From an uncultured Ignavibacteriaceae bacterium (GTDB taxonomy: Bacteria; Bacteroidota; Ignavibacteria; UBA10030), in contig CAZYAM010000002.1 of the NCBI GenBank assembly GCA_964645575.1, forward strand, positions 719-64,718: a stretch of DNA of 64,000 nt, given 5' to 3'. Below are positions 1 to 60,651 of this stretch, piece after piece. Position 1 is the first letter of the stretch; each line of letters starts with the position of its first letter. A program made the position numbers and the translations under genes. A model generated the notes under the pieces. It was given only the letters and a program-made list of their open reading frames with translations. It was not told where the DNA came from and did not search any database.

Positions 1-547
1 TATCGCCATGCTCGCCGACTATGTAGGCGTGTACGCTGCGCGTATCAACTTCATAAAATTGTCCAAGCAGGAATCTAAAACGAGAAGTATCCAGAATCGT
101 ACCCGATCCGAACACCTTTGCCGGTGAAAGATTCGATTCTTTTAAAGAAATATATGTCAGAATATCGACCGGATTTGTCGTAATAAGAATAATTCCGTTT
201 GGATTATGTTTTACGACCTGCGGAATAATGGATCGAAAAACAGCGGCATTTTTTGCAAGGAGGTCCAGACGTGTTTCGCCGGGTTTTTGCGGGACGCCGG
301 CTGTAATAACAACGACCTTTGCTCCCGAAAGGTCGGAATAATTGCCTGCTGAAATTTTCATCGGCTTCGTAAAAGAAAGCCCGTGATTTAAGTCCATCAT
401 TTCGCCCACAGCTTTTTCTGCATTTGCATCGATAAGCACGAGTTCGGATGCAATTCCACGCTGCATTAATGCGTATGCAAACGATGAACCTACCAATCCT
501 GTCCCCACTACTCCTACTTTTTGCGCAGGTGCTATTTCTGTAAACAT
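1..547 (-). CDS. ldh: L-lactate dehydrogenase, N-terminal part; the gene continues beyond the window start
   Basis: I translated the minus strand by hand. The product begins MFTEIAPAQKVGVVGTGLVGSSFAYAL, a Rossmann GxGxxG. Further on are LIDANAEKAVGEMMDLNHG, GVPQKPGETRLDLL (Gln at the LDH/MDH specificity position, so lactate rather than malate) and ITTNPVDILTY. The ATG lies at 547-545. Confidence 0.7.
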   Translation of the reverse strand, partial: MFTEIAPAQKVGVVGTGLVGSSFAYALMQRGIASELVLIDANAEKAVGEMMDLNHGLSFTKPMKISAGNYSDLSGAKVVVITAGVPQKPGETRLDLLAKNAAVFRSIIPQVVKHNPNGIILITTNPVDILTYISLKESNLSPAKVFGSGTILDTSRFRFLLGQFYEVDTRSVHAYIVGEHGD

Positions 548-674
548 GTTCTTATTCTCCGATAATCAATGAAAAACATGTATAATGTCTTCTTATATTT
601 CTAACGCGGGGGAGAAAAGGATAGTTCCTTGCTTATGTATTCCCCTGCTTTCTGTTATAACAATAAAGAAAAAT

Positions 675-2058
675 AAGCGTAGTACTCTTCGGTTGGTAAA
701 ACAGATATAAAGCAATATAGTTGAAGGAGTTATCCGAAATAACGAGTTTGTACACTCGTTAACGGAGAACTTTGGATGCCCCAACAGAAGAAGAGACGGA
801 TGTGTTGTAGATATTGTGAAAGTTTGGAGACGCCGAAACACAGAAAGCGCACAATCAGTCCGAAGAGTTTTAGCCGTCGGACCACGAGTCAGGTGCAACG
901 CTATAAGTGCAAGAGATGTGGACGAGCATTCGTCCAGCGCAAAGAAAGGAAAAAGCAATATACATTTGGATTTCAACGTGAGATTACCGGGATGCATCTT
1001 GAGGAACGATTGAGTTATCGTGTTATAGCCAAGAGGATAACAGAACGCTGGGGATATCATGTGAGTCCCAAGTCGTTATGTTCGATGGTCAATGCAGTAG
1101 CGCGGTTGAGTAAAAGCAGTATGGAGATGCAGCAAGAGTATCGCCCCTGCTGGAGCGGCTATTTGACGGTGGACGATAAATGGGTAAGCGTTAAAGGAAC
1201 ACGACATTTAAGTTTGGTGGCAGTGGATAACAGCGGAGACCCATTACACAGCGAACTGCACACGGAAGCAGATCAAGGGATTTATGATGGTTTTTTTCTG
1301 TATCTTCGAGATCGTTTAGGTTATCAGCTTCGAGCGCTCACGACTGACTTTGACCCGCGAATAGACAAAGCAGCCAGACGTGTATTTGGGACTGATTTGA
1401 CGCATCAAAAATGTTTGTGGCATGCTATGGAGATTGTGAAAACGTTGATAGAGTATCCTCAAGCGCAACGACGTGTAAAGAACGTACAGCGTCAAATAAC
1501 AATGTTAGAAGAAAGTCTTGCGGATCGTAAACAATCGTTGTATGATACGAACAAGACGCTTCAGAGCTTGAAAACGCAGTTGACAGAAATCGATGCAACA
1601 TATCAAGAGAAGAGCCTCTTGTTGGAGAGGTTTCGAGAATGTATCTTTGCACGCACGCGAGAGACCAGCGAACGTTGTTTGAAAAGCTTTCGCAGAGCTT
1701 ACAACAAGCGCTATGGGAACGTCATACGCTTTATAGCTTCGCACTGGGATGCACTGTTGGAACATCAACGTGATCCTCAGATCTTGAAGACTAGCGTACG
1801 GGCAGAGAATATAAACAAACAATTTGAAAGAAGATTGAAAACCATCGAAGCTTTCCAGTCTGTCGAGACGGCGTTCCAGTATCAGAACCTATATAGGAAC
1901 TATTTACGCTTAAAGCCCTATACTGATTGTCGAGGTGTTCGGAGATTCTATAATGGTCTTTTACCCTTGCAGGTCTGCCAAGCCGTACTTCCTTCATCAG
2001 ATTGGCTGAAAATTGCGGTTCGTTACCCTAAATAAACCACCGATATGTACTACGCTTT
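675..2058 (+). mobile_element. Insertion sequence encoding a single DDE transposase with a zinc ribbon (IS6/IS1595-like). It has imperfect terminal inverted repeats and an 8-bp flanking direct repeat
   Basis: The left end at 675-696 is aagcgtagtactcttcggttgg. The reverse complement of the right end at 2037-2057 is aagcgtagtacatatcggtgg, giving an 11-bp perfect core with an imperfect extension. Flanking direct repeats aaagaaaa lie at 665-672 and 2060-2067. Confidence 0.5.
776..2035 (+). CDS. Transposase, DDE family, with an N-terminal C2C2 zinc ribbon and an HTH
   Basis: The N-terminus reads CCRYCES...YKCKRCGRAF. An HTH-like stretch follows (LSYRVIAKRITERWGYHVSPKSL). The block VDDKWVSVKGTRHLSLVAVDNSGDP resembles the IS6 family D-x-K-x-x-G...Y-L-x-x-A-x-D block. 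There is a second acidic block (LTTDFD) and a C-terminal coiled-coil extension. It lies between the inverted repeats. Confidence 0.55.
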   Translation: MPQQKKRRMCCRYCESLETPKHRKRTISPKSFSRRTTSQVQRYKCKRCGRAFVQRKERKKQYTFGFQREITGMHLEERLSYRVIAKRITERWGYHVSPKSLCSMVNAVARLSKSSMEMQQEYRPCWSGYLTVDDKWVSVKGTRHLSLVAVDNSGDPLHSELHTEADQGIYDGFFLYLRDRLGYQLRALTTDFDPRIDKAARRVFGTDLTHQKCLWHAMEIVKTLIEYPQAQRRVKNVQRQITMLEESLADRKQSLYDTNKTLQSLKTQLTEIDATYQEKSLLLERFRECIFARTRETSERCLKSFRRAYNKRYGNVIRFIASHWDALLEHQRDPQILKTSVRAENINKQFERRLKTIEAFQSVETAFQYQNLYRNYLRLKPYTDCRGVRRFYNGLLPLQVCQAVLPSSDWLKIAVRYPK

Positions 2059-2136
2059 CAAAGAAAATTATTTGACAATAAAATAAATTTTAGGTAAAAT
2101 GAATTTGAATGGGCTTGCTTATTCTACTAAGGCAAG

Positions 2137-3801
2137 TTGGAGAAAATTTTCTTCGCGTCACTTCAAACAAATATTAATCTTTCCTGGAACACCGTCTCAG
2201 GTGCAACCCAATACAACGTCTATCAAGATGGAACAGTTATTCCTGTAACGATTTATACAAACAGTTACTCTGTTGGAGTATCCTGTGGAACTACTCATAG
2301 TTACTATGTAATAGCAGGAAATGTCGGTGGTTGGTCTGGTGCCTCGAACACGGTGAGCGGGACGGCCCTTACATGCACTCTCGTAGCCCCTACAGGTCTT
2401 AAAGTAACTGGAACGACTCAAACAAATATTAATCTTACCTGGAACACAGTCACCGCTGCAACCGTATACAATGTCTATCAAGATGGAACAGTTATTCCTG
2501 TAACAATTCATACAAACAGTTTCTCTGTCGGGGTACTTTGTGGAACTAATCATAGTTATTATGTAATAGCAGGAGATGACTATGGTAATTGGTCTGGTCC
2601 ATCGAACATTGTGAACGGGACCGCCCTTCCCTGCACTATCGCCAGAATATCGACCAAGTCAAATCCATTAAAAGGCGGAACGACGAGCGGAGGAGGAAAA
2701 TATATGTCAGGAACTTTGGTAACAGTAAGAGCAACTCCAGCCACGGGATATGATTTTATAAACTGGACTGAAAACGGAAGTTTAGTTTCGACAAATTCTA
2801 CATATACTTTTACTGTAATAGGATATAGAACCTTAACAGCAAATTTTTCCCTTCAATTAAAGCGGTATTATTATGTTAAGGATCATTTGGGAAGTATAAG
2901 GGTGACGGTAGATGTAACCGGAGATGTAAAAAGTTATGACGATTATGACCCGTGGGGTTTGCAGTTAGCGGGAAGAAGTCTGGTATCGGGAACAAATGGT
3001 AAATACAAATTCACCGGCAAAGAACGCGATATTGAGACGGGATTTGACTATTTCGGTGCAAGGTATTATGATAGTTGGATAGGAAGATGGATGGCGGTGG
3101 ATCCGCTGGCGGAGAAGTATCCGGGATGGAGTCCGTATAATTATGTTGCCAATAATCCAATAAATCTGATTGATCCTAAGGGGAAGGATTGGTATCAATT
3201 TGATAACAATGGAAATTATAAGCAGAAAATTTCTGCCGAAGGAACTCATAGAATCGTTATACATACTGTAGAAAAAACCGGCGATGGTTTAGAATCTGAT
3301 TTATATAAGTTCGTTGATTTTGCCGATCCTTTAAATGATGCCATGGATATAGATAATGGAACGATAAATAAACTCGTTTTTGTTAGTGAAAATGAAATAC
3401 AATCGATGCTAAGTGAACAAGGTGCATTTGAATCCGGAAAAATCAATTTTGGATTGGAAAGTCAAGGAGGAGGAAAATTTGATTATTCATTTTCAATACT
3501 GCCTGAAAAATATCCTAATGCAAATTTTACAGGGGATGATAAATCAAATTCGTTGTTCTTACCAGAAGGTGATAATACTGCTCATAATTTCATGAATTTT
3601 GGAAATTATTTATGGGCTGCAAGTGGGTATGCAGCTGGTTTTGGATATGGAGAATTACAGATGGGAGCACATTTAAATAGTTTACTAAATGCGAGACGAA
3701 ATGGTTATCCGTCACAATGGGATTCAAAAGATGACCAACGCTCAATTATTAAAGGAACATATCATGCACAAAAAAACAATTATAGAAAGTTAAGAAAATG
3801 A
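2137..3801 (+). CDS. Rhs/YD-repeat polymorphic toxin fragment, apparently 5'-truncated. It has FN3-like tandem repeats, the Rhs core terminus and an unrecognised ~200-aa C-terminal domain
   Basis: It starts on TTG mid-repeat, with an in-frame stop at 2128-2130. It has two ~80-aa repeats (TNINL[ST]WNTV..YNVYQDGTVIPVTI.TNS.SVGV.CGT.HSYYVIAG). YD-repeat motifs follow (RYYYVKDHLGSIR, YDDYDPWGLQ). The canonical Rhs core end is present (FDYFGARYYDSWIGRWMAVDPLAEKY...YNYVANNPINLIDPKGKD). The tail 3193-3801 is unrecognised. Confidence 0.6.
   Translation: MEKIFFASLQTNINLSWNTVSGATQYNVYQDGTVIPVTIYTNSYSVGVSCGTTHSYYVIAGNVGGWSGASNTVSGTALTCTLVAPTGLKVTGTTQTNINLTWNTVTAATVYNVYQDGTVIPVTIHTNSFSVGVLCGTNHSYYVIAGDDYGNWSGPSNIVNGTALPCTIARISTKSNPLKGGTTSGGGKYMSGTLVTVRATPATGYDFINWTENGSLVSTNSTYTFTVIGYRTLTANFSLQLKRYYYVKDHLGSIRVTVDVTGDVKSYDDYDPWGLQLAGRSLVSGTNGKYKFTGKERDIETGFDYFGARYYDSWIGRWMAVDPLAEKYPGWSPYNYVANNPINLIDPKGKDWYQFDNNGNYKQKISAEGTHRIVIHTVEKTGDGLESDLYKFVDFADPLNDAMDIDNGTINKLVFVSENEIQSMLSEQGAFESGKINFGLESQGGGKFDYSFSILPEKYPNANFTGDDKSNSLFLPEGDNTAHNFMNFGNYLWAASGYAAGFGYGELQMGAHLNSLLNARRNGYPSQWDSKDDQRSIIKGTYHAQKNNYRKLRK
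2165..2650. repeat. Two near-identical ~253-bp tandem repeat units encoding FN3-like modules inside the Rhs fragment
   Basis: The unit caaacaaatattaatct...gtaatagcagga recurs at 2165 and 2418 with ~90% nucleotide identity. Confidence 0.7.
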
Positions 3802-4289
3802 GAACTATGCTTAGCATATTTTTATTATATCTTTCTTTCATTAATAGTTGTACACACTATGAGAGCCTTCAAGAAAAATTCAACACTCTAAAAGAGATAG
3901 ATTATGCGGAGTTTAATGATATGAGTATCGTAAATAGGAAAGGAGTGTACTTCGTTACTTACAGAGGTTCGACATATAAAATAGAAATAAATTATTTTAC
4001 AGAAAGTATAACTTCAATAGAAAGAGCCTTTAGTGAAGAAAAAGGTATATTACTAACAAAAAAGGAAACTGATTATATAGAAAAAGCTTTAAAGTCTTTT
4101 GATAAAATTGGTGTTATCGTATTATCAGTTGATGAAAAAGGAAATGTGTTCCTTACTCTCCCTTGGTATGATAAATGTTCGTATCGTTTTCTTAGATTAT
4201 CTCCAACAAACTCACTGGAGGAAATTAAGAAAACATATTATCAGAATTACGAAGATAATTGGTATATGGATAAAGAATGTGCTGAATAA
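3798..4289 (+). CDS. Putative cognate immunity protein (small lipoprotein-like)
   Basis: The start overlaps the toxin stop (ATGA). The N-terminus MRTMLSIFLLYLSFINSC is a lipoprotein-type signal. It is 163 aa with no recognisable catalytic motifs, which is the typical position of a polymorphic-toxin immunity gene. Confidence 0.4.
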   Translation: MRTMLSIFLLYLSFINSCTHYESLQEKFNTLKEIDYAEFNDMSIVNRKGVYFVTYRGSTYKIEINYFTESITSIERAFSEEKGILLTKKETDYIEKALKSFDKIGVIVLSVDEKGNVFLTLPWYDKCSYRFLRLSPTNSLEEIKKTYYQNYEDNWYMDKECAE

Positions 4290-4299
4290 AATTCCAGTA

Positions 4300-5060
4300 A
4301 AACAGGGCTTCTTGCTTATCGAAACCCAAAGGATTTTGTGATAAACAAAAGTATGATTCATCGTATAGCGTAGAGTCCGGTCACCGACCGGACTATTTTG
4401 TATGTTTATGTAATTATGTTATTATTATTCGATCTGATGATCGGATTCTACGAAACATCTCGACCGTCGATTATCACAAAGTGATGGCTGCGCTAAAATC
4501 GACTTCTAGTTATACAAAATCCGAAGGATTTTGTGTTGAATGTTTGAAATCTTATCAGCTCCGTAAGAGTTGAACGTTTGTAACCGAAAAAACACGATAA
4601 CAATAGAACGCCGTAGGTGTTTAACTCCTATGGAGTTGTGTGTTATCTTTGTTTACGGTTCTATAAACGTATGACGCCTACGTCGTCAAAACAATCTATC
4701 GGATGCCGTTGAATAAATTCAACGGCTAACTAAACGAAACCCAAAGGGTTTTTGTAGAGTCCCATTCAGCCGGAGGCATTTTACAAAATCACACGTAGTG
4801 TGATACAATTTATGATTATGCAGGAATGTCCGACAGAGTGTCGGACTCTACGGATTAAAATCACAATCGAATAAATTCGACGGCTTATTATACGAAACCC
4901 GAAGGGTTTTTGTAGAGTTCCGTTCGTAACGGGACGAATGAGGTAATAAAATAAGGAAACCCTCTTCGAGCGTTACATTCCCACGCCTCCGGCTGACTAC
5001 GAGTCGCCTGCCTACCGCAGGCAGGGACGCTACAAATTATTATCGCTGTCGATTATCATG
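4300..5060. repeat. Non-coding cluster of related hairpin-containing repeat units
   Basis: The core aaacc[cg]aagg[ag]tttttgt occurs at 4320, 4511, 4737 and 4893. gtagagtccg occurs four times, one inverted. A ~55-bp direct repeat (gaataaattc[ag]acggct...cgaaaccc[ag]aagggtttttgtagagt) is at 4713-4770 and 4869-4925. Perfect hairpins lie at 4832-4852 and 4697-4718. A 12-bp inverted pair gcctccggctga / tcagccggaggc is at 4766-4777 and 4987-4998. No ORF longer than 30 aa is present. Confidence 0.45.
4368..4400 (+). terminator. Perfect 8-bp-stem hairpin followed by a T-rich tract downstream of the toxin/immunity pair
   Basis: The sequence is agtccggt cacccg accggact followed by attttgtatgttt. Confidence 0.3.
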
Positions 5061-5214
5061 TCCGAAGGGCCCCTTTGGAGAAGTGATGCACAAATAACAT
5101 CTACAAAAGGCATGTTATTGCCAGCTTTGGGAACCGAATCACAATCGGCATAAATATTATTACCGATATACTTCTTTTCGGTGTTTAATTCTATAAATCA
5201 ATACAGTTTTGCCT

Positions 5215-5391
5215 GAGTCGTTCACTTCAAAAAGTATTCGATAATTTCCTGATCGAATCCTATAACCTTCTTGATCATGAAGCTTTTGGACGCCGACAGG
5301 GCGGGGTTAGCTTCCTAAGTTAGAAATCTTTGAAAGAATCTTTATAACCTCGGTTTCAGGTAGAGCGTCGAGATCCTTCTGAGCAGAAGGT
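5215..5391 (-). pseudogene. Degraded RelE/ParE-family toxin remnant
   Basis: My minus-strand translation right after the antitoxin stop gives ...KPSAQKDLDALPETEVIKILSKISNLGS then a stop. This resembles the RelE/ParE N-terminus (kkAqkdLdkLpkevqkrIlkkI). A second frame continues ...FMIKKVIGFDQEIIEYFLK then a stop. No intact ~90-aa ORF remains. Confidence 0.3.
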
Positions 5392-5589
5392 TTAATGAGA
5401 ACTTTGTATGCCACGGCGTTTCTTATATTGTTCTATGGTCATACTTTTACCGCGAACTTTTTTTGCTTTTTCGAGATCAGAAACATCCTCAAGGAGTTCT
5501 ATTGCCTCACTCACGGCCGGATTGGTTTTCATTTTTTCCCAATCTCTCCGTGCTATTGTTACATGATGTTTTGTTTTAGTAAGAGTCAT
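5392..5589 (-). CDS. Small antitoxin-like protein (65 aa)
   Basis: A 65-aa charged ORF (MTLTKTKHHVTIARRDWEKMK...SEAIELLEDVSDLEKAKKVRGKSMTIEQYKKRRG) is immediately followed on the same strand by the relE-like remnant. This is the typical antitoxin-toxin order. Confidence 0.35.
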   Translation of the reverse strand: MTLTKTKHHVTIARRDWEKMKTNPAVSEAIELLEDVSDLEKAKKVRGKSMTIEQYKKRRGIQSSH

Positions 5590-6130
5590 AATTGCTCATA
5601 AATAAATTTAAGCTAATATATGAAATATTTTTCAATTTTTCATCTTGTTAGACCTAATAAATTGCAGCTTAAACATAAGCCCTTACCCTGGATTCACTTT
5701 CTGCACCTGCTTGCTCGCCGGTTTTCCCAATATAATGCATAGCGGGCCGGTTGTTGAAAGGCGGGCGAGCCGCGCTTACGCTATGCTTCGGCGGGCAGGC
5801 AGCTCCCAGATGAACGAAAAATGAATGTTTCGATATAAGTCAGGTTGCGAAATGGACTCTAAAGATTGACATTTATTAAAGTCCTATTTTTATTAAAGTT
5901 TTAGCAATATTCTCCTGCTCTCATTTCGTTGCATCGCTTGTGAATTCTTATTACATTTTATATTGTGTAAAGATTTTAAGTGTTGAAGAGTTGCCGAGCC
6001 ACCAGCAGGTTCCAAGTTGAATTTGTCTCGTGGCTCGATTCGTTTTCATCAAAAAAAGCGGGAACAGTTTTGTTCATTTCCTCGTCAGTAGAATTGAAGA
6101 ATGTCATATTTAAATTAAGAGGAGTACACT

Positions 6131-7114
6131 GTGGATATTAAGACAATCAATGAAATGATTCAGCGTGAAAGCACGTTTGTAGAATCGCTGACATCGGAAG
6201 TCGGTAAGGTCATAGTCGGCCAAAAAAATATGGTAGACCGGCTGCTAATAGGTTTGTTATGCAACGGGCACATTCTTTTGGAAGGTGTTCCGGGACTGGC
6301 AAAAACACTTGCCATAAAAACTCTGGCGGCGGCTGTCAATGCGAAATTCCAGCGTATCCAATTTACACCCGACCTGCTTCCTGCAGATCTTGTCGGAACG
6401 ATGATATACAATCAAAAAGATGGAAAATTCTTTACGCGTAAAGGGCCCTTATTTTCAAACTTCATTCTTGCAGACGAAATAAACAGGGCGCCGGCCAAAG
6501 TACAGAGTGCACTGCTCGAAGCTATGCAGGAACGACAGGTTACTATCGGTGAAGAAACATTCAAGCTTGAAGAACCGTTTTTAGTACTGGCTACACAAAA
6601 TCCAATAGAGCAGGAAGGAACATATCCGCTTCCGGAAGCGCAGGTTGACCGCTTTATGCTGAAAGTAAAAATCGGTTATCCGTCGCGCGAAGAAGAACTG
6701 CTTATAATGCGGCAGAATGTTCTGGGAAATGAAAAGAATGTAAAAGCTGTCGTATCCACAAAAGAAATCCTTTCTGCCCGTGAGGTAGTAAAACAGGTGT
6801 ACATGGATGAAAAGATCGAACGCTATATTCTCGATGTTGTGTTTGCGACCCGTGAACCGAAGAATTTCAAATTAGACAAGCTTGCACCGCTGATCAGCTA
6901 CGGAGCGTCGCCGCGCGCTTCAATTAACCTGGCGTTGGCTGCAAAAGCACATGCATTTATAAAGCGGCGCGGTTATGTTATCCCTGAAGATGTACGCGCT
7001 GTTTGTCCCGATGTTATGCGTCATCGTATTGCCGTCACGTATGAAGCGGAAGCGGAAGAGATTACACCGGAGCAGATTGTGATAGAAATTCTGAATAATG
7101 TGGAAGTTCCATAA
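6131..7114 (+). CDS. moxR: MoxR-family AAA+ ATPase
   Basis: Walker A is GVPGLAKT. The arginine finger and sensor regions are present (LADEINRAPAKVQSALLEAMQERQVT). A strong RBS aagaggag lies upstream of the GTG start. The protein is 327 aa. Confidence 0.85.
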   Translation: MDIKTINEMIQRESTFVESLTSEVGKVIVGQKNMVDRLLIGLLCNGHILLEGVPGLAKTLAIKTLAAAVNAKFQRIQFTPDLLPADLVGTMIYNQKDGKFFTRKGPLFSNFILADEINRAPAKVQSALLEAMQERQVTIGEETFKLEEPFLVLATQNPIEQEGTYPLPEAQVDRFMLKVKIGYPSREEELLIMRQNVLGNEKNVKAVVSTKEILSAREVVKQVYMDEKIERYILDVVFATREPKNFKLDKLAPLISYGASPRASINLALAAKAHAFIKRRGYVIPEDVRAVCPDVMRHRIAVTYEAEAEEITPEQIVIEILNNVEVP

Positions 7115-59025: not shown

Positions 59026-60651
59026 TTATTTCATAAATGTAATCTTTATTGTATTTGTAAAGTCCTTTCCTTTCTCCGATTGCGCGGTGAGACGTGCAAA
59101 ATATATTCCGCTTGCTAGTCTTCCGGTATCGAATGTAACTGAATAGTTACCGGATTTCTTCGTTTCATTTACCAGTTCTGCTATTTCACGTCCGAGTATA
59201 TTGTATATCTTCAAACTTACATGACTATTCCCTGAAATCTGATATTTTAAAGTTGTCGATGGATTGAATGGATTCGGAAAATTCTGAAATAAGGATATTT
59301 TAAAAGGGATGCTGATGTCTCTGGTGTTTTTAACTTTAGTAGGTTGAATTATACTCTCCAGTTGTGGAATAAGCCAATCGTTGATACCGCCGTCGATTTG
59401 TGCATCAGAATTGCTCCAGATGTAATCCCGAAAACCATTTAAAATCCGCCAGGCATTCATATCATACCTGATTGCCTCTCCTGCTGTAACAGCGACTCTA
59501 TGATCCATCCCGTCCAGTATAACTTGTTTATCCATATCAATAGATATTGAATCCCACATTGCTATTGCTTCATTTCTCAGATTCTTAATAGTCGGAAGTG
59601 ATGGGCTTCCCGTTGCATAGAATTCAATTGTGTGTGCGATTGTCATAATAACTGCCATTGCTTTTGAGGGACTTTTCGTAGTCTTTAAAATTCCAAATCC
59701 ACTTTCTCCCCATCCTACATTATGAGTTCCGTTGTACGATGGAAGAGCGGCGATATCCCAGTAATTGGTACTGTCGCTCAATGTTCCGCAATACCATGAA
59801 CCGACCGTTACCATAGCTGTTCTGCCTGAACCTAAGGGATTACCCTGCATGGTGTCGGAAAACATTTCCCTATAAGGTATAAAGTAATTCTGCCAGATAC
59901 CCGAATGGCTCCACAAATATCCATCGCGCATGTATTGCGGTATACTTACACTGCCGTCTTGGTTTATAAGCTGCGGTGGGCCGAACATGCAAAGGAAACT
60001 TATTCCATTATTCCACGCCCAATGAAAACCGTATTGCAAAATATGATTTTTATCGAATTCAGGATGAAGAGTATTATGTCCATTAACATCTAGGGTCAAT
60101 AATGCTCCTATTTGTGCAAGTTTGTTTACATCCCAGGATTCTCCGTCCGCGTACAGTGAATCATAACTGTGCGGAGGATAGGGAATTCCTGCATGATCGA
60201 ACATATCTTTATTATAATAAAATAGATCCGGACTCTGGGTCAGAGGAAGATATATCAGGCCGTTTTTATTTCTGAATTTATGGAAAGAAGATGTATCCAT
60301 TTGAGTCAGAACCGATTGTGGAATATATGGAGTAAGATCAAGAAAATGATCCCAGAGTACACTATATCGTAAAGCTGTTATGTCTGGGGGGCTACCCGCT
60401 GCAATTCTTGATAATAATGAATCTGCTGCATCAAACGAACAGGTGGCAGTAGTGATATCCATAACTAGTTCAATACTATCCTGAGAAAGATTATACGCCT
60501 GGACGTATCGTATAAAATCACTGTCAAGCGTACCCTCATCGTTTGATGCTTGAATAAACCATTTAATTTGTGTTCTTCCTGACTGTCCAAAGAATGTATT
60601 TGGGCACAAGACAAAAGCAAAGAATATGCAAATAGCAAATCTACTACGCAT
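59026..60651 (-). CDS. Secreted family-1 solute-binding-protein-like protein with a C-terminal T9SS sorting domain
   Basis: It has a signal peptide. An SBP_bac_1-like region is present (LIYLPLTQSPDLFYYNKDMFDHAGIPYPP, WAWNNGISF). The C-terminal ~80 aa carry the T9SS CTD pattern (LFQNFPNPFNPSTTLKYQ...GIYFARL...ITFMK). Confidence 0.6.
   Translation of the reverse strand: MRSRFAICIFFAFVLCPNTFFGQSGRTQIKWFIQASNDEGTLDSDFIRYVQAYNLSQDSIELVMDITTATCSFDAADSLLSRIAAGSPPDITALRYSVLWDHFLDLTPYIPQSVLTQMDTSSFHKFRNKNGLIYLPLTQSPDLFYYNKDMFDHAGIPYPPHSYDSLYADGESWDVNKLAQIGALLTLDVNGHNTLHPEFDKNHILQYGFHWAWNNGISFLCMFGPPQLINQDGSVSIPQYMRDGYLWSHSGIWQNYFIPYREMFSDTMQGNPLGSGRTAMVTVGSWYCGTLSDSTNYWDIAALPSYNGTHNVGWGESGFGILKTTKSPSKAMAVIMTIAHTIEFYATGSPSLPTIKNLRNEAIAMWDSISIDMDKQVILDGMDHRVAVTAGEAIRYDMNAWRILNGFRDYIWSNSDAQIDGGINDWLIPQLESIIQPTKVKNTRDISIPFKISLFQNFPNPFNPSTTLKYQISGNSHVSLKIYNILGREIAELVNETKKSGNYSVTFDTGRLASGIYFARLTAQSEKGKDFTNTIKITFMK

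Follow-up and report, generated by a model that had tools for sequence, protein, structure and literature searches.

A truncated, shell-less Rhs-core toxin gene with an Ntox44-like tip and a candidate lipoprotein immunity gene in an uncultured Ignavibacteriaceae bacterium

Here, we propose that a pair of overlapping genes in a 64-kb stretch of DNA from an uncultured Ignavibacteriaceae bacterium (contig CAZYAM010000002.1; the whole 64,000 nucleotides are referred to below as the window) is probably what is left of a small Rhs-core polymorphic toxin of the shell-less type, dead for export but with its toxin-immunity cassette intact. This is based on the first gene, an open reading frame (ORF) of 554 amino acids (aa), being truncated at its N-terminus, on its last 203 aa (the tip) being assignable to the Ntox44 toxins, and on the tip and the downstream lipoprotein gene forming a foreign, low-GC unit on a native Rhs core. 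The toxin is therefore a further member of a known family on a known Rhs-core system, in a branch whose structure and mechanism are uncharacterised. A sequence-only reading of the same DNA had presented the locus as an orphan Rhs/YD toxin fragment with an unrecognised tip and a candidate immunity gene, and we return to its claims where our results bear on them.

The toxin tip, its exported partner and the site of action

A word-indexed search found 61 relatives of the tip, at up to 78% identity, and an exhaustive profile search found 556 clusters (formed at 50% identity) at a cutoff of E <= 1e-3, of which 126 reach E <= 1e-30. Every family member has the match at its C-terminus, the carriers including DUF6443/RHS-repeat proteins of 1100-3300 aa, and the family is mostly found in Bacteroidota, gut Bacteroidales included. 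Some of the relatives are named “polymorphic toxin type 44 domain-containing protein” by NCBI. The Pfam Ntox44 model (PF15607) matches 34 of 36 family members at E <= 0.01, with 6 above the gathering threshold; relatives above it include P0021 (32.6 bits), whose identity with the window tip is 72% across aligned residues 43-203, as well as P0061 (35.3 bits), P0026 (29.6 bits) and P0048 (27.5 bits). By transitive homology through such relatives, the tip is assigned to the Ntox44 superfamily as a member of an extended, diverged branch. Counting against this assignment, the window tip itself scores just 16.9 bits against PF15607, under the gathering score of 24.

Three motifs, DxK, GNxxxG and DxxxD, are listed for Ntox44, which was predicted to be all-alpha, with its catalysis unclear and no immunity family given (Zhang et al. 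2012; PMC3482391). The family has GNxxxG as GNYLWG (GNYLWA in the window) and the window tip has DxxxD as D178-S-K-D-D182, both of them within tip residues 133-190, where PF15607 matches; no DxK motif was identified. When compared by hhalign, the tip profile matched P0138 at E 9e-5, and its comparisons with P0157 and with P0133 were not significant. A tblastn search of the tip against plasmids gave no match. Three contigs that carry the tip family (L012, L040 and L041) are labelled as Clostridiales, Bacilli and Clostridia metagenome-assembled genomes, all other loci being labelled Bacteroidota; they may reflect mis-binning or transfer.

The conserved unit is about 200 aa long and includes a beta-rich N-terminal half, with an FADP motif, that lies outside the Pfam model; about 60 of the 203 tip residues align to the 104 positions of that model. 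Invariant in the family are D46 (of FADP), N133, N136, G138, N139, L141, N163, G172, S179, D181, Q183, S185 and I186. No histidine is invariant, H132 and H161 being replaced by Q or Y. AlphaFold2 predicts one compact domain (predicted local distance difference test, pLDDT, 93.1; predicted template modelling score, pTM, 0.90), in which the helical residues 134-201 are packed together with beta strands in residues 1-65 and 121-132. A fold search with this model against the PDB gave a best E of 0.54 with a TM-score below 0.25, the same search against BFVD gave nothing, and a profile search of the tip against PDB sequences returned only chance matches to TFIIH (E ~0.08). The tip had been described as unrecognised, and part of that description stands: the family is known (Ntox44, or polymorphic toxin type 44), but the fold has no solved relative. 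A glycine-zipper pore former was also considered and excluded, since the model is a compact, charged, soluble domain. Judging from the residues that are conserved, the tip may be a metal-dependent hydrolase built around D46, N133, N136, N139, D181 and Q183.

What follows the tip is, as first read from the sequence, a gene for a lipoprotein-like protein of 163 aa that overlaps the toxin gene by ATGA (the toxin stop codon TGA is at 3799-3801 and the immunity ATG at 3798-3800). This protein has 42 homologues of about 164 aa each, and Pfam and NCBIfam scans placed it in no family. Its signal peptide is conserved among the homologues, as are the lipobox Cys18 and two further cysteines, Cys127 and Cys161 (each at least 90% conserved), which fits an exported and possibly disulfide-bonded lipoprotein. 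The AlphaFold2 model has a pLDDT of 88, with low values in the N-terminal helix, and a fold search against the PDB found nothing. Across the family, with tips down to 27-55% identical, around 40 of 45 downstream ORFs encode lipoproteins of 150-190 aa with a signal peptide and Cys, and a lipoprotein is also encoded next to the divergent Ntox44-like tips of P0157 and P0138. The protein encoded after an HNH nuclease cassette of the same arrays lacks a signal peptide. In the Bacteroidota arrays L003-L054, many further putative immunity proteins with plain signal peptides follow the non-Ntox44 cassettes, and exported immunity proteins seem to be unusually common there.

In light of its exported partner, where might the toxin act? 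We lean, if only slightly, towards an envelope- or periplasm-acting metal-dependent hydrolase, since the partner is consistently exported and the invariant residues include Asp, Asn, Gln and Ser but not His. The lipoprotein, probably disulfide-bonded, would then bind and block the toxin in the periplasm or envelope. A broader and more tentative suggestion, to which we give somewhat less than even credence, is that the extended Ntox44-like domains of Bacteroidota and Ignavibacteria could form a structurally new class of periplasm or envelope enzymes that are not RNases and are neutralised by unclassified disulfide-bonded lipoproteins.

Two considerations speak against placing the toxin in the envelope. 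The first is TseR of Yersinia pseudotuberculosis, a PAAR-Ntox44 protein for which divalent-cation-dependent RNase activity is reported (PMC13577199, which cites Cell Rep 44:116074); it is the sole Ntox44 protein known to have been studied experimentally, and no experimental structure is known. RNase activity implies a cytoplasmic target, which clashes with an exported immunity protein. The second is that, by a crude regular expression, lipobox-like partners follow 25 of 33 tip cassettes but also 25 of 56 other cassettes. Lipoprotein partners are thus common in Bacteroidota arrays generally, and the localisation argument is suggestive rather than decisive.

The alternative is a metal-dependent RNase that, like TseR, would act in the cytoplasm. 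The lipoprotein would still be its immunity protein, either intercepting the incoming toxin in the periplasm or having a signal peptide that is irrelevant to function. Besides the reported activity of TseR, such a reading would accommodate the close relatives that score above the Pfam threshold, the retention of the GNxxxG and DxxxD motifs, and the invariant acidic and amide residues, which are compatible with a metal site. It fits poorly with immunity candidates that are exported lipoproteins with two additional conserved cysteines in most loci, with the HNH nuclease cassette, whose immunity protein has no signal peptide, with the variability of H132 and H161, and with the small part of the tip that aligns to the Pfam model. 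On this evidence, we consider a cytoplasmic RNase rather unlikely. The conflict between an RNase annotation and exported immunity proteins is the one interesting point that the locus raises, and an answer would show whether the annotation of a whole branch of a Pfam family is right or needs correcting. Should a non-RNase envelope class prove true, the label “predicted RNase” would be wrong for hundreds of toxins of this branch, including in gut-microbiome profiling.

The truncated gene and the adjacent insertion sequence

Upstream of the tip, the 554-aa protein consists of two FN3-like repeats, a divergent InlB B-repeat and an Rhs core. In agreement with the sequence-only reading, which had seen a conserved core followed by some 200 aa, TIGR03696 matches aa 270-349 with 79.8 bits (cutoff 32.5), the core ends in ...YVANNPINLIDPKGKD, and the tip begins directly after DPKGKD. 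The match to NF041261 is restricted to model positions 1147-1260. Pfam and NCBIfam scans of the 554-aa protein found no YD/RHS repeats, PAAR, DUF6443, signal peptide or tail of the type IX secretion system (T9SS). Among homologues of aa 1-351, two groups can be told apart: T9SS cargo proteins, which the B-repeat resembles, and short RHS-core proteins, which the core resembles. The core is 70-78% identical to those of hundreds of RHS-core proteins of 250-450 aa, some of them named Ignavibacterium or Ignavibacteriae, and many of these short relatives are complete, with a signal peptide, a PKD-like domain, a core of about 110 aa (“LKR-YYVKDHLGSIR...DPxG”) and a variable C-terminus. Three of them (P0132, P0133 and P0137) have a common N-terminus but different C-terminal toxins, and further shell-less examples are P0149, P0158, P0161, P0165, P0180, P0200, P0202 and P0237. 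Such tip swapping suggests that in Ignavibacteria-type genomes the Rhs core alone serves as an adaptor for recombination and processing. With FN3-like repeats and a B-repeat upstream of the core, and with complete relatives that are short, the window ORF looks like a shell-less “mini-Rhs” and not like a piece of a classical YD shell. The description of the locus as a YD-type Rhs fragment has therefore to be given up, the nearest cores being those of short proteins with the order signal peptide, PKD, core and toxin.

The FN3-like assignment reflects weak beta-sandwich Pfam matches only. Two nearly identical tandem repeats of 253 bp (about 90%) had been noted here; the repeat is real, but its period is 255-258 bp, and identity is 87% between 2163-2331 and 2418-2586 (169 nt), 81% between 2326-2383 and 2584-2641 (58 nt), and 78% over whole units in a global alignment. 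The two copies were recovered by a direct repeat search, and Tandem Repeats Finder (TRF), run on 1900-5400, did not call a tandem repeat. Metagenome contigs of the same population (L010 and L055) carry a 469-aa allele with a single FN3-like repeat, at whose junction repeats 1 and 2 are combined; the difference reflects either genuine variation in repeat number or an assembly collapse.

As the sequence-only reading had it, with correct coordinates, the ORF starts inside an FN3-like repeat just after an in-frame stop codon (TAA, 2128-2130). There are stops in all three upstream frames, and in none of these frames is a signal peptide encoded. The similarity between the two FN3-like copies fades near 2152-2163, so that the ORF is without approximately the first 10 residues (the first strand) of repeat 1. 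The 554-aa ORF is thus N-terminally truncated and its export signal is gone. Having no signal peptide, the toxin presumably cannot take the Sec-dependent route of its complete relatives, and the locus would mainly confer immunity.

What removed the 5' end? An insertion sequence (IS) lies immediately upstream, and an 8-bp direct repeat, AAAGAAAA, occurs at 665-672 and 2060-2067, exactly 2 nt outside both of its inverted repeats. As a candidate target-site duplication, this repeat suggests that the IS entered intergenic DNA and landed between genes rather than itself cutting the toxin gene. A simple IS-interrupted gene was ruled out, as just 125 bp lie between the left side of the IS and the start of ldh. 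The IS transposase (419 aa) has a zinc-ribbon N-terminus and weak matches to IS6, IS256 and IS1 models, and the inverted repeats are 19 bp long and imperfect. A different possibility is that an adjacent deletion mediated by the IS took away the 5' part of the toxin gene. Only 78 bp separate the end of the IS from the ORF start, and the 125 bp before ldh leave no room for the missing part on the far side of the IS. However, the direct repeat around the IS is the signature of a simple insertion in which nothing was lost, even if it is A-rich and could be due to chance, and we regard such a deletion as unlikely.

One point is at odds with a dead remnant: the ORF is fully open, with a strong promoter-like site and a Shine-Dalgarno-like AAGG ahead of it, so that the toxin may still be expressed. 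The promoter-like site at 2072-2100 is the best in 1900-5700 (by consensus match only), and together with a terminator-like hairpin it brackets the toxin and immunity genes. On a further reading, the 554-aa ORF would be a complete, functional gene with its own promoter and signal-independent export, from which nothing was truncated. Its intact reading frame, the near-consensus promoter-like site and the hairpin flanking the gene pair, and a tip that keeps all of the family-invariant residues would agree with this, as would the recurrence of the identical arrangement, with the order ldh-IS-ORF, in several metagenome samples. Yet the ORF starts some 10 residues inside a domain and directly after a stop codon, its product has no signal peptide, PAAR, DUF6443 or T9SS tail, every complete relative begins with a signal peptide or with a long N-terminal stretch, and no genes of a type VI secretion system (T6SS) were found in the 64-kb window. 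A complete gene is accordingly very unlikely.

Origin and present role of the cassette

The window has a GC content of 41.5%, and the N-terminal part of the gene (41.4%) and the core (42.2%) are close to it; the tip (32.7%) and the immunity gene (28.7%) are lower. Identity changes at the same place, as the cores of foreign loci are 34-50% identical to the window core and the tips attached to them are 57-72% identical to the window tip. Both breaks coincide with the DPxG junction, which means that tip and immunity gene were acquired as a unit; they constitute a foreign, low-GC cassette on a native core.

The linkage of tip and partner was followed in 44 loci from named genomes (41 of them labelled Bacteroidota) together with metagenome loci. 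In every locus with a tip at least 57% identical to that of the window, a homologue of the 163-aa protein is encoded directly 3' of the tip, usually with a 4-bp overlap, and the less similar the tip, the less similar is the immunity protein (Spearman 0.90, n=20). Through this linkage and co-divergence, the 163-aa lipoprotein is a cognate immunity candidate for the tip, and the toxin-immunity arrangement seen from the sequence is borne out. That the downstream ORF should be an unrelated housekeeping lipoprotein with no immunity role, as its want of a Pfam or NCBIfam family might allow, is extremely improbable given a gene that adjoins the tip in every locus examined, mostly by a 4-bp overlap, co-diverges with it and shares its aberrantly low GC. 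The tip does match a known toxin family, which, together with a non-cognate immunity, had been named as evidence against the sequence-only reading, but the immunity candidate is cognate and not a housekeeping protein.

How might the present locus have arisen? The ancestral protein would have had a signal peptide, one or more beta-sandwich domains, an Rhs core of about 110 aa ending in DPxG, and a variable toxin, with an immunity gene behind it. Its last 203 aa and the downstream gene would have recombined in at DPxG from a pool circulating in Bacteroidota, and the 5' end would have been lost, taking with it the signal peptide and the opening strand of FN3-like repeat 1. The toxin itself presumably acts, where it is delivered, in the periplasm or envelope of the target cell. 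Today, the locus most likely works mainly as an immunity gene that has been kept, not as a weapon that can still be delivered, protecting against neighbours with the same tip, and it may also be a reservoir for recombination.

As a genome feature, the locus is routine: another degraded polymorphic-toxin cassette that mainly preserves its immunity gene. What gives it value is that it points to a large uncharacterised toxin-immunity family, for which the models of both partners are predicted with confidence and neither has a solved structural relative.

Genomic setting and comparison with known systems

The features of the locus are collected in Table 1. Its immediate neighbours are ldh, the IS and the Bat operon, and the remaining genes of the window are chromosomal housekeeping genes: ldh, a Bat/MoxR operon, BipA, PBP2/RodA, a histidine kinase and a T9SS-tailed solute-binding protein. 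The last of these is a solute-binding-protein-like ORF (59026-60651, minus strand) with a T9SS C-terminal sorting domain (PF18962), which points to a type IX secretion system in the host. The classic setting of an orphan, 3' of a full-length rhs gene, does not apply within the 64-kb window, where there is no second copy of the Rhs core, the tip, the immunity gene or the IS.

Table 1. Positions of the toxin-immunity locus and its flanking elements in the window
Feature	Position	Strand	Remarks
Insertion sequence, 1387 bp	673..2059	+	transposase ORF 776-2035; inverted repeats 675-693 / 2039-2057
Promoter-like site, TTGACA-17-TAAAAT	2072..2100	+	37 nt 5' of TTG; 11/12 consensus matches
Polymorphic-toxin ORF, 554 aa, TTG start	2137..3801	+	N-terminally truncated; ORF list and domain scans
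Two tandem FN3-like repeats	2163..2641	+	copies 2163-2383 and 2418-2641
Divergent InlB B-repeat	2653..2850	+	aa 173-238; PF18998, E 2.3e-14
Rhs repeat-associated C-terminal core, LKRYYYVKDHLGS...DPKGKD	2863..3189	+	TIGR03696 match
Toxin tip, 203 aa, extended Ntox44-like domain (assigned by homology)	3190..3798	+	profile searches
Part of the tip matching Pfam Ntox44 (tip aa 133-190)	3586..3759	+	PF15607
Candidate immunity lipoprotein gene, 163 aa	3798..4289	+	signal peptide and lipobox Cys18 at 3798-3851
Terminator-like GC hairpin and T run	4374..4394	+	85 nt 3' of immunity stop codon

The 840-bp non-coding stretch 3' of the immunity gene holds repeats of its own. Between 4308 and 4925, a repeat of about 38 nt occurs four times, each copy with a small AAACCCnnnGGGTTT hairpin, and a 57-nt pair (4711-4767 and 4869-4925) is 88% identical. 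These repeats have no Rfam match and no further copies in the window, and an Rfam scan of 1-6200 gave no matches at all. Further on, the minus strand carries a type II toxin-antitoxin remnant (5147-5589), in which a ParE/RelE toxin (PF05016, E 5e-10 with the stop masked) is broken by an in-frame TAA; ahead of it, an intact 65-aa ORF (5392-5589) probably encodes the antitoxin.

How does the locus compare with systems already described? Effectors that act in the periplasm and are countered by periplasmic or lipoprotein immunity proteins are known from the T6SS pairs Tae/Tai, Tge/Tgi and Tle/Tli. By analogy, the logic they share with the window locus, and no more than this logic, is that an exported immunity protein suggests a target in the envelope, and we make no claim of membership. 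They differ in that searches of Pfam and the PDB found no similarity of sequence or fold, and the tip has neither a catalytic Cys nor a GxSxG motif.

The orphan rhs/cdiA-CT modules of Enterobacteria, known from work by Koskiniemi, Poole and Hayes, reportedly combine a 5'-truncated toxin gene, in which part of the core and a variable tip remain, with an immunity gene that is intact. The window locus resembles them in all of these respects, and also in its foreign base composition and its DPxG junction. In contrast, it has no full-length rhs within the 64 kb, and its core is preceded by FN3-like repeats and a B-repeat, not by YD repeats. As it has no YD shell and does not lie downstream of a main rhs gene, we call it a truncated, shell-less Rhs-core toxin cassette and not a classical rhs orphan.

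With the DUF6443-RHS arrays of Bacteroidota (L011, 1464 aa; L025, 2960 aa; L020, L031, L033 and L038), the locus shares the families of the tip (up to 72% identity) and of the immunity protein (up to 59%), usually with the same 4-bp overlap. The carriers in these arrays have a full YD shell and DUF6443, and their cores are just 34-50% identical to that of the window.

The closest comparison is with Ntox44 (PF15607) itself, TseR included. In both, the domain is C-terminal in polymorphic toxins, and the tip family keeps GNxxxG (GNYLWA in the window) and DxxxD in a C-terminal half modelled as helical. Here, however, the unit is about 200 aa long, with a beta-rich N-terminal half beyond the 104-position Pfam model. 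Finally, TseR is borne on a PAAR/T6SS carrier and is described as an RNase, whereas the partner of the window tip is an exported lipoprotein.

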